Below, piece after piece: positions 20,094 to 26,092 of a stretch of DNA of 64,000 nucleotides. Each line of letters starts with the position of its first letter. Position 1 is the stretch's first letter. The stretch is from Escherichia coli. Lineage in GTDB: Bacteria; Pseudomonadota; Gammaproteobacteria; Enterobacterales; Enterobacteriaceae. The translations under genes and the position numbers were made by a program. The stretch lies in assembly GCF_030013595.1 (NCBI RefSeq), contig NZ_CP122768.1; one strand, given 5' to 3'. Under the pieces are notes generated by a model that was not told where the DNA came from, did no database searches, and saw only the letters and a program-made list of their open reading frames with translations.

Positions 20094-20747
20094 TTATCGC
20101 AGTTTGTTGTAATTTTCTGACCACTGCGCCATATCCAGAACAGAACTATCAGCAGGAGCATCCTGGAGATCGTGCGTTACCTGAACGACGGGGATCGCCA
20201 GGGCGCGAACTTCGCTGAACACCCACTGGCGAAAATTATCGCGCAGAGCCACATCAAGACGGCTGAATGGCTCATCCAGGAGCAACGCTTTTGGCTGAGC
20301 GAGAAGAGCGCGAAGCAGAGCAACGCGCGCTCGCTGACCGCCAGACAAAGTGGCAGGATCCTGATGGAAAGCTCCGTCAAGGCCTGAACGCTCAAGTGCA
20401 TCATTCACGGCATTACTTCGGGCATTCCCTTTAAGTGTCGGCGGTAGCGCCAGCAGTAAATTTTGCCCGACGCTGAACTGATCAAATAACAGTGCATCCT
20501 GGAAAAGAATGCCAATCTGACGCTGTGCGGTGGGTAGCATGTCAATCCGTTGCTCATTGAGCCATAGCTCACCTGTACAAGAAAACTGTCCGGCCAGCGC
20601 ACCAATCATCCATGAAAACAGAGTGGATTTTCCACAGCCAGACGGCCCCATTAACGTGACAATGTCACCTTTACTCACCGTAAAGTTAACGTTTTTCAGC
20701 AAGCGGCTTTCTGGTAAACGTAGCGAAACATTTTTCACGCAGAGCAT
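20094..20747 (-). CDS. ynjD: ABC transporter ATP-binding protein
   Basis: Start MLCVKNVSL at 20747; Walker A GPSGCGKST, ABC signature LSGGQRARV. Confidence 0.85.
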   Translation of the reverse strand: MLCVKNVSLRLPESRLLKNVNFTVSKGDIVTLMGPSGCGKSTLFSWMIGALAGQFSCTGELWLNEQRIDMLPTAQRQIGILFQDALLFDQFSVGQNLLLALPPTLKGNARSNAVNDALERSGLDGAFHQDPATLSGGQRARVALLRALLAQPKALLLDEPFSRLDVALRDNFRQWVFSEVRALAIPVVQVTHDLQDAPADSSVLDMAQWSENYNKLR

Positions 20748-22282
20748 TAGCGGAGTCCTTGTCTGACATAACCGACCCATTTTGCGACTAACGCGGTCAG
20801 GGCAAAAATAATAAGCGGCAACAGTAGTTGCCATAAAGCCTGGGCGGCGAGAATACCGTTGCTGCCGCCGCTGCTTAATGCCACCGCTTCAGTGGTGAGC
20901 GTCGGAAAACGCCCCGCGCCCAGCCACAGCGTCGGCATATACTGTGCAATACTGACTGAAAATCCCACCGCGAAGACAATCAGCGCAGGGCGTAGCATGA
21001 GTGGGCATTTCACGTAAAAGAAGATTGTGGCCCGCGACCAGCCCAGTGTTTGCGCAATCAAAATTAACCGTGAATCAATGCGCTGCCAGGCGGGTTGCAG
21101 GATAAACAGCATCCACGGCATTACCCACAGCAGATGCCCCCAGACCACCGCCGTCCAGCTCCCATCCAGGTTCAGCCAGAGCGCCAGCGTGTACTGGCCT
21201 GCCACCAGTGGCAGAGCGGGTAATAAAATGGGCAACCATAGCCAGAAGTGCCGACGTGACGATCCCCATTCCAGCCACGCCAGTATCAGGAATAAAGCGA
21301 TAAACGTCGCGGTAAGTCCCATCGTCAGGCTATTGATGAGCGCTTCACTATTGATCGTCGACTGATCCGCGAGGATCGCCAACAGAACCACACACAGCAC
21401 ACCGGTCAAGGGTAAAAAACTCGCCAGCGTAATGCCTGGCAATAAAGGCGTGGCAGGCTTACGAACGCCATCTACGCGGGGAATAGTACGCCGCCAGCTA
21501 CGCCATAGCAGATAGCCCAGCAAAACGTAGGCGGCGAGTAACAGCATCAGCAGCAGGCTGGCGAGTGCGCCTTTCGTTTGTTGATCGGCGTCGCCCTGAG
21601 TTAACCACTGCCAGCTAATTACTGCCAGCGTCGGGGGATTACCTGGCCCAAGGATAATCGCCACATCCACGACCGACAGCGACCAGGCGACAATCGCCAG
21701 CATCGCCATTGCCAGTGCAGGTGCGACGGAGGGCAACAACAGCCAGTTCAGGCATTGCCAGCGGCTGTAGCCCAGCGAATCCAGTACAATAACTTGCTGC
21801 AACAGCCGTTTTTCGCTCAATACTGCCGCTAAGATCCACAGCAGAAATGCGCTTTCTTTCACTGCAAGGGTGAGGCCCAGACCGATGCCAAATCGGTCCA
21901 TTGGCGGAGTGAAATACGGGAAATAGTCATAAAGCAGCCCTCCGTCAGCAAAGAGCAGAAGGGCGCTGGTGGCAAAAGCCACATGGGGAATGGCGAGCAG
22001 CCACGGCAGACGGGCGCACATACGCTGCCATTTCGGCCCAGGGCACAGCGCCACAATCACCAGCAGGGCAATCAACAACGCCCCGACCGCCGCGATGGTT
22101 GTCGACACCAGCGTTGCCAGTAATGCCTGCGGTAACTGTGGATCGGCAAATAACGCCTGCCAGTGTGTCAACGACAAAGCAGGCGATATCAGCGTGAGAG
22201 CTGCCGGGATCAGCGGTGCATAAATCACCGCCACCATCGCCCACAGCAAAAAGATTAATGCGTACCGTAACGGCGTAACCAT
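20747..22282 (-). CDS. ynjC: ABC transporter permease (fused double domain)
   Basis: 511-aa polytopic membrane ORF; stop shares a base with the ynjD start. Confidence 0.8.
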   Translation of the reverse strand: MVTPLRYALIFLLWAMVAVIYAPLIPAALTLISPALSLTHWQALFADPQLPQALLATLVSTTIAAVGALLIALLVIVALCPGPKWQRMCARLPWLLAIPHVAFATSALLLFADGGLLYDYFPYFTPPMDRFGIGLGLTLAVKESAFLLWILAAVLSEKRLLQQVIVLDSLGYSRWQCLNWLLLPSVAPALAMAMLAIVAWSLSVVDVAIILGPGNPPTLAVISWQWLTQGDADQQTKGALASLLLMLLLAAYVLLGYLLWRSWRRTIPRVDGVRKPATPLLPGITLASFLPLTGVLCVVLLAILADQSTINSEALINSLTMGLTATFIALFLILAWLEWGSSRRHFWLWLPILLPALPLVAGQYTLALWLNLDGSWTAVVWGHLLWVMPWMLFILQPAWQRIDSRLILIAQTLGWSRATIFFYVKCPLMLRPALIVFAVGFSVSIAQYMPTLWLGAGRFPTLTTEAVALSSGGSNGILAAQALWQLLLPLIIFALTALVAKWVGYVRQGLR

Positions 22283-23421
22283 TCTTGTTCCAGTGCATTC
22301 ACCCATCCTGCGTGCGGTTCAGCCAGTACCGGCGGCAGATCCTGCGGCATTCTTGATTGCAATATTTCGCGCTGCTCGTCAGGCAGTTTTTGCGGATCGA
22401 GAACAGAAGGATCGCCCCAGACAGCGGGATCTGCTTTACGCAGTTGCGCATCGGGTGAGAGCAGGAAATTGGCAACTACCTTCGCCGCAGCACTAGCATT
22501 CGCGTTGGCTGGAATGGTGACGAAATGCACGTTGCCAATCATCCCCTCGCGAAAGCCAAAACTGTAACTGCTGGCGGGTAAATCGCCGCTGGCGATTTTT
22601 TGCTGCGCATGAGCAGGATTAAAGGTCAGCGACAGGCGCAATGTGCCGGCTTTCAGCAGAGCATCCATCCGCGCGGGCGAAGGCGGGAAATCCTTTCCTT
22701 CGCGCCATAAATACGGATGCAGCGCATCAAGAAATTGCCACAAGGGCGCAGTGACACGGGCGAAAGTCGCATCGTCCGGAGCTTCTTTTAATGCGGCGGG
22801 ATCGGGCGTCAGCATAATCAGCAACTGTTCAAGAAACGCCGTGCCGGTAAAGTCCGGTGGGCGCGGATAGGTAACCGTGCCAGGATTGGCTTTAGCAAAC
22901 TCCAGCAACGCTTGCGGCGTTTGTGGTGGCTGTGGCGTAACATCGCGGCGGGCGATAAACGTCAGTTGTGCGCCACCCCAGGGCGATTCAGCCCCTTCTG
23001 TAGGCACTGAAAAATCTTCCCGCACCGGCAGCTGTGTGTCGACATAGCGCCAGTTGGGCAGAGTCTCTGCCCAGTCGGTTTGCAGTAAATTAGCCTCTTT
23101 TAAGGTGCGGAAGTTTTCGCCGTTCACCCAGAGCAGATCCACCGAACCGCCTGTTTTGCGTCCGGCAGCAGCTTCGGTCTGAATGCGCTTCACCGCGTCT
23201 GCGGCATCCGCGAGACGAACAATCTTCAGGTTTATAGCGTAATGGGTTTTCATCTCGCCGCTAACCCAGTCGAGATAGCGGTTAATTGCCGTATCGCCGC
23301 CCCAGGCGTTAAACCAGACGGTTTGCCCTTTGGCGTCGTTTTTGATTTCCTGCCAGTCACTGGCATGTGTTGCCAAAGAAAACAGCGATAACAATCCCAG
23401 CAACCACCCACAATGGCGCAT
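22255..23421 (-). CDS. ynjB: ABC transporter periplasmic substrate-binding protein (thiamine/iron-type fold)
   Basis: Signal peptide then SBP-like sequence; 3' end overlaps the ynjC start by about 28 nt; start at 23421 or 23424. Confidence 0.8.
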   Translation of the reverse strand: MRHCGWLLGLLSLFSLATHASDWQEIKNDAKGQTVWFNAWGGDTAINRYLDWVSGEMKTHYAINLKIVRLADAADAVKRIQTEAAAGRKTGGSVDLLWVNGENFRTLKEANLLQTDWAETLPNWRYVDTQLPVREDFSVPTEGAESPWGGAQLTFIARRDVTPQPPQTPQALLEFAKANPGTVTYPRPPDFTGTAFLEQLLIMLTPDPAALKEAPDDATFARVTAPLWQFLDALHPYLWREGKDFPPSPARMDALLKAGTLRLSLTFNPAHAQQKIASGDLPASSYSFGFREGMIGNVHFVTIPANANASAAAKVVANFLLSPDAQLRKADPAVWGDPSVLDPQKLPDEQREILQSRMPQDLPPVLAEPHAGWVNALEQEWLRRYGTH

Positions 23422-25377: not shown

Positions 25378-25381
25378 CGTT

Positions 25382-26092
25382 CTATCCTTCATTTTTGGGG
25401 TGAGTAAGTGGGCTGCGGCGAGAAGCAGACAGATCCACATGTTTGTGTCGGGCATAGAGTTTGGCGAGCTGGACGAGAATAAACAGCGCCATGCCCGCCA
25501 GACAGAGTTGTAATATAAAGCGCAGCGTAATGCCTTCATTGGCGAGATCGCTTGCCATCACGGTATAAATAACAATACCGGGCAGGGTTGTGAGTGCCGA
25601 AATAAGGGTATAAGGCCAGAAGGTGATTGTGGTTAATCCGTAAGCGTAATTTTGAATATTGTAAGGAAACAACGGGATTAAGCGGGTCAGAATAAGAAAA
25701 TCAATACCGTTACGCGCAATGCCTTTTTCAATGGCCTGAAAGGTATGGCTATGGCCAACGTATTTCAGCAGTAAATCACGTCCCAGCCAGCGCGCCAGCA
25801 GGAATGAGCACGAGGAGGCCAGCGTGGCGGCAATTAATGATAGTAGTGTCCCTAAGAGCGGGCCAAAAACTATTCCTCCAGCGATCACCAGTATGCTTCC
25901 TGGTAACAGAAAGAGGGTGGCAATGATGAATAACAGAATATAGAGGCTATAACCGAACAATCCGCTCTGGCGAATGAGTGTCAGTAAGTGAGGTAAATCG
26001 GTGAGCAGCTCGAATAAACAGAAAGCGTGGAAAGCGTAAATGACCAGCGCAAAAATAAGACAGGCAAAAAGAAATTTACGCTCAGCGTTCAT
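25382..26092 (-). CDS. ydjX: TVP38/TMEM64 (DedA-like) inner membrane protein
   Basis: Start MNAERKF at 26092 gives 236 aa; membrane profile. Confidence 0.8.
   Translation of the reverse strand: MNAERKFLFACLIFALVIYAFHAFCLFELLTDLPHLLTLIRQSGLFGYSLYILLFIIATLFLLPGSILVIAGGIVFGPLLGTLLSLIAATLASSCSFLLARWLGRDLLLKYVGHSHTFQAIEKGIARNGIDFLILTRLIPLFPYNIQNYAYGLTTITFWPYTLISALTTLPGIVIYTVMASDLANEGITLRFILQLCLAGMALFILVQLAKLYARHKHVDLSASRRSPLTHPKNEG

Follow-up and report, generated by a model that had tools for sequence, protein, structure and literature searches.

The ydjXYZ-ynjABCD operon is among the larger blocks of function-unknown genes in Escherichia coli, the best-studied bacterium, and the question that it raises is which substrate two VTT/DedA-superfamily membrane proteins, a lipoprotein, a CxxC protein and an ATP-binding cassette (ABC) importer might handle together. 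This locus was analyzed in a window of 64,000 nucleotides (nt), i.e., the whole stretch of DNA under study, from contig NZ_CP122768.1 of the RefSeq assembly GCF_030013595.1, and the adjacent ynjE and convergent ynjF genes were considered along with it. In this study, the ydjX-ynjE operon was tied to a small, highly conserved module of gut, oral and sediment anaerobes, composed of YdjY and VTT proteins. As a tentative answer, which we consider possible but short of probable, ydjXYZ-ynjABCD together with ynjE and ynjF may form an anaerobically induced unit handling a thiol-binding chalcogen or metalloid via a lipid- or thiol-linked membrane step. Selenium would be the most likely substrate and is our first choice, with arsenic or sulfane sulfur as the alternatives. 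If true, this would provide the first physiological context for bacterial TMEM41/Tvp38-type proteins and a role for YnjE, a rhodanese with a crystal structure lacking a known physiological substrate, and it would make trace selenium acquisition (or arsenic processing) under anoxia directly testable with existing E. coli knockouts.

Gene neighborhoods of YdjY homologs across phyla

The surroundings of ydjY were compared in 80 retrieved YdjY loci, representing 32 taxon labels, with the use of tblastn and clustering of the neighboring open reading frames (ORFs). A VTT gene was found beside YdjY in 73 of the 80 loci, usually encoding a YdjZ orthologue (50–60% identity), and two VTT genes were present in 25. 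The YdjZ orthologues stand directly beside YdjY in Bacillota and Campylobacterota, and YdjX-like paralogues (30–39% identity) adjoin it in other phyla. Further partners were a Fer4+CCG (HdrD-like) protein (24 loci), YnjB (17 loci in 8 taxa), a TIGR04283 glycosyltransferase (17 loci), a YnjE-like rhodanese (13 loci), a TIGR04282/DUF2064 protein, often fused to an APH-type kinase (13 loci), an ArsS radical-SAM protein (10 loci), a YnjF-like phosphatidyltransferase (9 loci), a nucleoside hydrolase (7 loci), SelD within 10 kb of YdjY (7 loci, i.e., Facklamia and four Desulfobacterota) and an LPG_synthase_TM flippase-like protein (6 loci).

Homologs of YdjX/Y/Z, YnjB/C/D and YnjE co-localize in Bacillota, Campylobacterota and Desulfobacterota. 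Single-strand gene orders were, e.g., YdjY-smallTM-VTT-VTT-CCG-YnjF-YnjB-YnjC-YnjC-YnjD in a locus of Bacillota (L058), YdjY-smallTM-DUF2064/APH-VTT-VTT-GT2-x-CCG-ArsS in Campylobacter concisus (L059), YedF-x-SelD-x-CCG::VTT-YdjY-smallTM in Desulfobacterota (L081) and, in Facklamia (L077), GT2, a PrdB-like probable selenoprotein, ArsS, CcdA, ResA, VTT, VTT, nucleoside hydrolase, smallTM, YdjY and rhodanese. The locus of Facklamia languida (L075) repeats the order of L077, with ArsS not detected, and the YdjY-rhodanese genes are directly followed downstream by tRNA-Sec (66 bits with Rfam), SelD, SelB and SelA (11714–17428). Moreover, Desulfobacterota encode the Fer4-CCG protein and a YdjX-like VTT domain as a fusion, in a single polypeptide of 618 amino acids (aa). 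This association of the YdjY and VTT module with YnjBCD, YnjE, YnjF and HdrD-like partners across phyla is new in this analysis.

The recurrence of the same combination on one strand in unrelated phyla argues that the Ydj and Ynj halves, ynjE and ynjF constitute one unit, and so does the different subset that survives together in Edwardsiella. In that genus, a YnjA-like gene overlaps a YnjF-like gene on the same strand, a YnjE-like rhodanese and one VTT gene are localized beside them, and the ABC genes are absent. As only YnjA-YnjF, YnjE and one VTT protein are kept there, ynjE probably belongs to the system, and we propose the same for ynjF.

A four-helix membrane protein of about 130–145 aa with a WLEMRIH motif adjoins YdjY in 27 loci (between L008 and L087), mostly just downstream of it (e.g., L085 9493–9885 and L025 11062–11493). 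It gave no Pfam or NCBIfam match, is absent from E. coli, and is apparently fused to the N-terminus of a long (380–410 aa) YdjZ in Catonella, Finegoldia and Gemella. In Catonella morbi (L039), a 'Clostridiales-1 RNA' motif of Rfam (49.5 bits, gathering threshold 48) was found on the plus strand at 10571–10678, between the ydjY-like and VTT genes. With Rfam, no RNA family was recognized in the region of E. coli, and the sequences preceding YdjY in 15 loci contained neither a riboswitch nor a leader.

Operon organization and anaerobic regulation

Among 5,426 complete E. coli genomes, 5,424 matched an 8-kb query around the locus, and in two of these the identity was 100%; the ydjXYZ-ynjABCD locus is core E. 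coli. Gene coordinates (Table 1) were taken from the RefSeq annotation of an identical genome and from the ORF list. A preliminary description of the window, made from its sequence, had placed seven co-oriented genes in this span with a 1-base ydjZ/ynjA overlap, an overlap of about 28 nt between ynjB and ynjC and a stop-start overlap of ynjC and ynjD, all of which were confirmed; the strand, left unstated there, is the minus one. Its family names for all genes agree with the profile matches reported below. In the sequence, ydjX and ydjY are separated by 4 nt and ydjY and ydjZ by 14 nt, the overlaps amount to 1 nt at ydjZ/ynjA, ynjA/ynjB and ynjC/ynjD, and ynjB and ynjC overlap by 28 nt. The ynjE gene lies downstream on the same strand, as described, and the gap of 50 bp assigned to it was slightly too low; it measures 66 nt up to the annotated start codon (ATG, 20027) or 51 nt if the in-frame ATG further upstream, at position 20042, is used. 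Within the 66-nt gap, no terminator-like site was found on the minus strand, and a weak promoter-like site is present at 20068–20041.

The operon itself was previously known, and the novelty implied in the preliminary description did not hold, as ydjXYZ-ynjABCD with ynjE has already been catalogued as oxygen-regulated. In Myers (2013), ydjXYZ-ynjABCD is listed among the operons activated by FNR; the FNR site is given at -60.5, and occupancy by FNR and sigma-70 was reported along with a change in expression. In the RiboReport Ribo-seq benchmark, ydjX-ynjE was taken as a weakly expressed eight-gene operon. In the window, the 166-nt spacer between xthA and ydjX holds an FNR-like box, TTGAGaaaaATCAA, which is invariant in an alignment of E. 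coli, E. albertii, Citrobacter and Klebsiella, the flanks of which diverge. A candidate extended -10 element with a conserved ATAC(C/T)GTC core was read from the sequence downstream of the box, where a TATAC element likewise does not vary among Escherichia, Citrobacter and Klebsiella, and its spacing would fit a start site near 26148, which would center the FNR box at about -60.5. The box and its conservation, observed here, and the occupancy and expression data of the literature together characterize an FNR-activated promoter. The listing as an FNR unit, the eight-gene benchmark and the conserved box all speak for a single operon, as had been suggested.

An 8-bp hairpin without a U-tract, CTCCTGGC...GTCAGGAG, is localized on the minus strand at 26224–26248, between the FNR box and the stop codon of xthA, which it immediately follows.

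The VTT proteins and the YdjY lipoprotein

Both YdjX and YdjZ match the VTT_dom model (PF09335; 93.6 and 87.1 bits, respectively, with a cut-off of 33.9) and are members of this superfamily. They are paralogues of 28% identity with 3–4 long hydrophobic stretches each, and a published phylogeny places the two in the TMEM41 branch. The VTT domain is shared with characterized DedA/VTT transporters (UptA; TMEM41B/VMP1/Tvp38 scramblases), and with this placement it makes a lipid- or carrier-flipping role the default expectation for YdjX and YdjZ. Unlike the VTT proteins of the YdjY loci, none of those characterized is known to have a dedicated lipoprotein partner with a three-cysteine (Cys3) motif, an ABC importer next to it or an HdrD-like Fe-S domain fused to it. 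The identity of YdjX or YdjZ with the undecaprenyl-phosphate transporter UptA (NCBIfam NF052604) was considered and rejected, given scores of 28.9 and 36.4 bits against a cut-off of 250.

The YdjY protein matches only the ydjY_domain model (NF040466/PF27149; 146 bits, cut-off 50), and belongs to this family. Its lipobox is L24-S25-G26-C27, with Asp at position +2, which is the inner-membrane retention signal in E. coli (Lol pathway). Homologs of 50–58% identity occur across phyla, with Cys173, Cys176, Cys180, Arg73 and His74 invariant. The family is tiny, with 127 confirmed loci in 100,044 species genomes and 391 clusters in a set of 1.84 billion representative proteins. Of 112 full-length representatives, 102 retain the GCxxCxxxC motif, and no selenocysteine variants of the Cys motif were found in the 80 loci. 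Some sources label YdjY homologs as 4Fe-4S ferredoxins; we rejected this label, as YdjY contains only CxxCxxxCP with three cysteines and gave no Fer4 Pfam match, and a comparison of the protein with PDB sequences returned only chance-level ferredoxin fragments (E = 0.3). The export signal of YdjY is of the lipoprotein type and lacks a twin-arginine (RR) motif, so that the protein is probably exported without a folded cluster.

The invariant Cys3 and His site would also suit a thiophilic metal (Zn, Cu(I), Cd, Ni or Co). YdjY would then be a metal-binding lipoprotein that feeds or buffers a VTT transporter, with the remainder of the operon encoding an unrelated nutrient importer. A cobW-like fragment directly upstream of YdjY in Finegoldia is in line with this explanation, and so are the ferric-ion and metal-citrate binders among the fold neighbors of YnjB. 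However, metal regulators, P-type ATPases and metallochaperones are not among the recurrent neighbors in the 80 loci, where disulfide-reductase-like and rhodanese proteins recur instead, and we give a metal-buffering function little credence.

Predicted thiol and lipid partners

The YnjA protein is a member of the AhpD/CMD family (CMD, PF02627; 36.2 bits, cut-off 23), its C76xxC79 motif aligns to the catalytic CAYC of the AhpD-like PDB entries 2ijc and 2o4d, and it contains no hydrophobic 19-mer. It shares the CMD fold and the aligned CxxC with Mycobacterium tuberculosis AhpD and Pseudomonas aeruginosa PA0269. Unlike in AhpD systems, there is no AhpC or lipoamide partner nearby, an N-terminal extension of 56 residues is present, and the protein is restricted to Enterobacterales. 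The YciW-related (seleno)protein model (NF053654) was rejected for YnjA (99.3 bits against 310), which is a relative and not a member of that family. Searches with tblastn and phmmer --max found no YnjA-like CMD protein in the non-enterobacterial YdjY loci, which suggests that YnjA is an Enterobacterales-only addition lying outside the ancient core. It takes the operon position that is held elsewhere by Fer4/CCG proteins.

The rhodanese model PF00581 matches YnjE in three stretches (117.3 bits), which together with the loop at Cys385 and the export signal predicts an exported sulfurtransferase. According to the literature, YnjE is periplasmic, hardly acts, if at all, on thiosulfate or 3-mercaptopyruvate and accounts for a small share of cellular sulfane sulfur. 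Exported YnjE-like rhodaneses with a CG[TS]GWR loop are encoded beside YdjY in Catonella, Peptostreptococcaceae and Campylobacter; the rhodaneses of Facklamia are cytoplasmic, 3-mercaptopyruvate sulfurtransferase-like, and have a different loop. The predicted features of these partners imply cysteine-thiol chemistry on both membrane sides. Outside, it would involve the Cys3 lipoprotein and the rhodanese, to which Facklamia adds a reducing pair of CcdA and a ResA-like thioredoxin, and the putative thiol partner inside is a CxxC protein or an HdrD-type domain, sometimes fused to the VTT protein.

The convergent YnjF is a CDP-alcohol phosphatidyltransferase (PF01066; 43.4 bits, cut-off 22) that scores below the PIP and AIP synthase equivalog cut-offs (42.7 against 170 and 63.3 against 180, respectively). 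YnjF-like genes were found in YdjY operons of five Bacillota loci; their products agree in the ranking of NCBIfam profiles and have 25% identity along the entire length. The TMEM41-branch VTT proteins, the PIP-synthase-like YnjF and the flippase-like proteins in the loci point to a lipid side of the system. The stop codons of ynjF and ynjE converge at a distance of 8 nt, and this gene pair has been listed in the literature as an 'excludon', i.e., a convergent pair with overlapping transcripts.

On the plus strand, a hairpin with a T-run was observed at 18748–18761, inside the 3' end of ynjE, where it could terminate ynjF.

The YnjBCD importer and its putative ligand

YnjB matches SBP_bac_8 (54.6 bits) and PRK11622 (561.6 bits), YnjC matches BPD_transp_1 below the cut-off (17.4 against 26.4 bits; its split homologs in other loci reach 45 bits), and YnjD matches ABC_tran (PF00005; 105.3 bits). 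A binding protein, a permease of 12 segments and an ATPase are thus combined in one operon, as in a type I ABC importer. In having a binding protein, a 12-TM fused permease and an ATPase, YnjBCD resembles the group of ThiBPQ, FbpABC, PhnSTUV and PotABCD, and the nearest NCBIfam models are PhnU2, PhnT2 and ThiQ. It differs from this group in that all substrate-specific NCBIfam models (ThiQ, CysA/CysT, ModB/C, PhnT2/U2, PotA) score far below their cut-offs and in that YnjD has no C-terminal regulatory domain. The sulfate/thiosulfate transporter CysPTWA was rejected on this ground (CysT 22.3 bits against 246, CysA 109.6 bits against 502).

No sequence relative of YnjB was found in the PDB. The AlphaFold2 (AF2) model of the protein (pLDDT 88) has as its Foldseek neighbors the cluster-D binding proteins PhnS (4r6y), PotD, FbpA, AfuA and MctA, with 13–18% identity. 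The residues of YnjB that are invariant in Enterobacterales and Bacillota are mostly Trp, Phe, Tyr, Asp, Glu, Asn, Gly and Pro. The lack of an invariant Arg, Lys or His disfavors an oxyanion site, and the ligand seems more likely to be a cationic or neutral polar organic compound than thiosulfate or selenite.

These data bear on an anaerobic import or mobilization of thiosulfate, polysulfide or persulfide sulfur (e.g., for the molybdenum cofactor or Fe-S clusters), with YnjE transferring the sulfur and YnjA serving as reductase. In its favor, YnjE bears the annotation of a thiosulfate sulfurtransferase, the Cys loop of its active site is conserved, it has reportedly been implicated in molybdopterin sulfur transfer, and CCG partners of the HdrD-like type typically belong to sulfur and heterodisulfide chemistry. 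Nevertheless, the poor activity of YnjE toward thiosulfate and 3-mercaptopyruvate and its minor contribution to sulfane sulfur do not fit such a route, YnjC and YnjD remain far under the sulfate/thiosulfate cut-offs, and YnjB shows no conserved residues of the anion-binding type. A sulfur function therefore appears distinctly unlikely to us.

The preliminary description had suggested a redox- or sulfur/selenium-related import function and had named ligand prediction for YnjB as a check. The functional linkage of the genes was upheld, and a redox/chalcogen flavor is circumstantially indicated by the SelD/YedF/Sec machinery adjacent in three lineages, the HdrD-like CCG partners and the CcdA+ResA pair; the import of an oxyanion via YnjBCD was not borne out. 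As to the ligand, the residue pattern led away from an oxyanion, and the fold gave none. The lipid side had been left out, i.e., YnjF as a CDP-alcohol phosphatidyltransferase and the VTT proteins as relatives of TMEM41-type scramblases.

Association with selenium and ArsS genes

Our preference for selenium is based on gene neighborhoods. YedF (202 bits, cut-off 110) and SelD are encoded beside the CCG::VTT-YdjY genes in Desulfobacterota, and the Sec machinery follows YdjY in Facklamia. SelD was found near YdjY in five of the 32 taxon labels; by a rough estimate, the proportion of genomes in which a single-copy gene comes to lie within 10 kb of another given gene should be far below 1%. Of the candidate selenium-delivery proteins around SelD (YedE/YedF, rhodanese perselenide carriers), YedF adjoins the YdjY core in Desulfobacterota; the E. 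coli locus contains no YedE or YedF. Rhodaneses can reportedly carry selenium. In E. coli, selD is localized beyond ynjE (Table 1), and topB, gdhA, ynjH, nudG and ynjF lie between the two genes.

In a narrower version of this proposal, the core of YdjY and YdjZ/YdjX, with YnjE and either YnjA or an HdrD-like CCG protein, would be a route dedicated to capturing selenium and delivering it to SelD in anaerobes, to which the YnjBCD/YnjF or ArsS branches would add an organo-selenium or lipid-linked form. We consider it quite improbable as stated. According to a 2026 review, prokaryotes are not yet known to have a specific high-affinity system for the transport of selenium.

Besides the selenium genes, ArsS (336.6 bits, cut-off 300), TIGR04283 and TIGR04282 were detected above their cut-offs in YdjY/VTT operons of Campylobacter concisus, Facklamia, Thermincola and Desulfobacterota. 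Clusters of the ArsS type (TIGR04167, TIGR04282, TIGR04283) therefore share an operon with the YdjY/VTT core in Campylobacter, Facklamia, Thermincola and Desulfobacterota. The E. coli locus differs from them in being devoid of these genes and in having the ABC importer, YnjA, YnjE and YnjF instead; ArsS, TIGR04282 and TIGR04283 gave no match in six Escherichia/Citrobacter loci (about 7–10 kb on either side of ydjY), the E. coli genome beyond these not having been searched. Our search of the literature on ArsS/arsenosugars with DedA/SelD or phospholipid gene clusters, and on the family identifiers, found nothing describing this neighborhood.

The ArsS genes raise the possibility of an organo-metalloid lipid. 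The core would then make or salvage, and flip, a phospholipid with an ArsS-type 5-deoxy-ribose head group (an arsenosugar phospholipid or its selenium analogue). Genomes with ArsS, nucleoside hydrolase, APH-like kinase, DUF2064 and GT2 would make the head group de novo, and in E. coli YnjBCD would import it, YnjF attach it and YdjX/YdjZ flip the product, with YdjY and YnjE acting outside. Apart from the above-cut-off matches inside YdjY/VTT operons, the presence of the nucleoside hydrolase and kinase in the same clusters would agree with this scheme. The ArsS set and the ABC+YnjF set occur mostly in different loci, as alternative routes would. The PIP-synthase-like YnjF, the position of the VTT proteins in the TMEM41 scramblase branch and the conserved aromatic and acidic residues of YnjB, which suit a sugar or onium ligand, would be accounted for as well. 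On the other hand, ArsS-type genes are missing from the E. coli locus, we know of no phospholipid of the arsenosugar or selenium-analogue type in E. coli, the 'arsenosugar' names are annotation transfers in these anaerobes, and many loci consist of YdjY and VTT only, with no lipid enzyme. We therefore regard such a lipid as rather unlikely.

A PrdB/GrdB-like gene, in which about 95 conserved codons continue beyond an in-frame TGA (SPG-U-YICHQSVGLIQ), was observed in several of the loci (L071 12995–13471, L075 4879–5346, L077 3693–4160, and also L080, L084 and L085). The gene belongs to the YdjY/ArsS clusters of Facklamia and Bacillus benzoevorans, and its product is probably a selenoprotein.

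Proposed mechanism and its evaluation

In our preferred reading, i.e., the handling of selenium or another thiol-binding chalcogen or metalloid under anoxia, the substrate would be held in the periplasm on Cys385 of YnjE and on Cys173/176/180 of YdjY. Transfer through the membrane would be the task of the YdjX/YdjZ pair, the intermediate probably being linked to a lipid or a thiol. In the cytoplasm, a dithiol reductase (YnjA in Enterobacterales, the HdrD-like Fer4/CCG protein in other phyla) would release or recycle the substrate. YnjBCD would import an organic, probably non-anionic, form or a co-substrate, and the PIP-synthase-like YnjF may join the imported compound to CDP-diacylglycerol. 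Observed here are the arrangement of the operon, the families of its proteins, the FNR box and the conserved neighborhoods and fusions; all steps of transport and chemistry, and the substrate itself, are proposals.

Several observations weigh against this reading. Firstly, a literature search pairing these genes with selenium, thiosulfate, selenite and arsenite found no link, nor was any experimental connection of the genes to selenium, arsenic or sulfur found there, and a comparative-genomics study of selenium genes from 2015 omits the ydj and ynj genes. Secondly, the adjacency of SelD and Sec genes may only reflect selenoprotein neighbors, such as the PrdB-like protein with its in-frame TGA, and ArsS and C-GCAxxG-C-C are themselves '(seleno)protein' families; selenium as the substrate and cluster proteins that are merely selenoproteins are two readings which these data cannot separate. 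Thirdly, most YdjY loci (Gemella, Finegoldia) comprise only YdjY and one long VTT protein, with no pointer to selenium. Furthermore, no structural relative of YdjY was found that could guide the assignment of a binding site, and the generic cluster-D matches do not allow the ligand of YnjB to be read from its fold.

The remaining adverse points concern the unity of the operon. Klebsiella keeps the operon synteny without ydjY, the G+C content of ydjX and ydjY is 0.47–0.48 versus 0.56 for ynjA, ynjB and ynjC, and overexpression of BaeR modestly induced only ynjABCD (Bury-Moné et al. 2009). The lower G+C content of ydjX/ydjY and the Klebsiella operon suggest a mosaic origin, and the BaeR effect and the G+C difference fit a mosaic with some independent regulation. 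With the operon read as a mosaic of unrelated units, functionally separate genes would merely share a promoter, ydjXYZ serving membrane lipid homeostasis, ynjABCD being a vitamin-like importer and ynjE acting independently. The absence of the ABC genes in Edwardsiella would be understandable in this case, homologs are labeled 'putative thiamine transport' by KEGG/JGI, and the thiQ model is among the top ATPase matches. Its score, however, is 134 bits against a cut-off of 245, there was no TbpA or ThiP match, so that ThiBPQ was rejected, and YnjB has no sequence-detectable solved relative. YdjY/VTT also recurs with YnjBCD, YnjE and YnjF on one strand in unrelated phyla, which chance co-transcription does not explain, and separate functions under a common promoter are in our view very unlikely.

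Features of the locus in the window

The genes and promoter elements of the locus are listed in Table 1.

Table 1. Genes and putative regulatory elements of the ydjXYZ-ynjABCD locus and its surroundings (positions in the 64,000-nt window)
Feature	Position	Strand	Characteristics
FNR-type box TTGAGaaaaATCAA	26202–26215	minus	upstream of ydjX; one mismatch to TTGAT-N4-ATCAA
Candidate extended -10, TGtTATACC	26157–26165	minus	read from sequence; ATAC(C/T)GTC core conserved
ydjX	25382–26092	minus	VTT/DedA-superfamily membrane protein, TMEM41/Tvp38 branch
ydjY	24700–25377	minus	inner-membrane-anchored periplasmic lipoprotein; invariant Cys3 motif C173, C176, C180
ydjZ	23978–24685	minus	VTT/DedA-superfamily membrane protein; conserved YdjY partner
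ynjA	23421–23978	minus	AhpD/CMD-fold protein, C76-E-F-C79; predicted cytoplasmic
ynjB	22255–23421	minus	periplasmic substrate-binding protein of ABC importer
ynjC	20747–22282	minus	fused double permease, 12 hydrophobic segments
ynjD	20094–20747	minus	ABC ATPase, 217 aa; no C-terminal regulatory domain
ynjE	18720–20027	minus	exported sulfurtransferase with three rhodanese domains; active loop CGTGWR, Cys385
ynjF	18091–18711	plus	PIP-synthase-like CDP-alcohol phosphatidyltransferase; converges on ynjE; proposed to belong to the system
selD	12701–13744	plus	selenide, water dikinase (RefSeq annotation); 5 kb beyond ynjE; link uncertain

Two further features of this strain follow from the RefSeq annotation. 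The gdhA gene (15781–17123, minus strand) is a frameshifted pseudogene, and ydjL (1–454, plus strand) is annotated with an internal stop.

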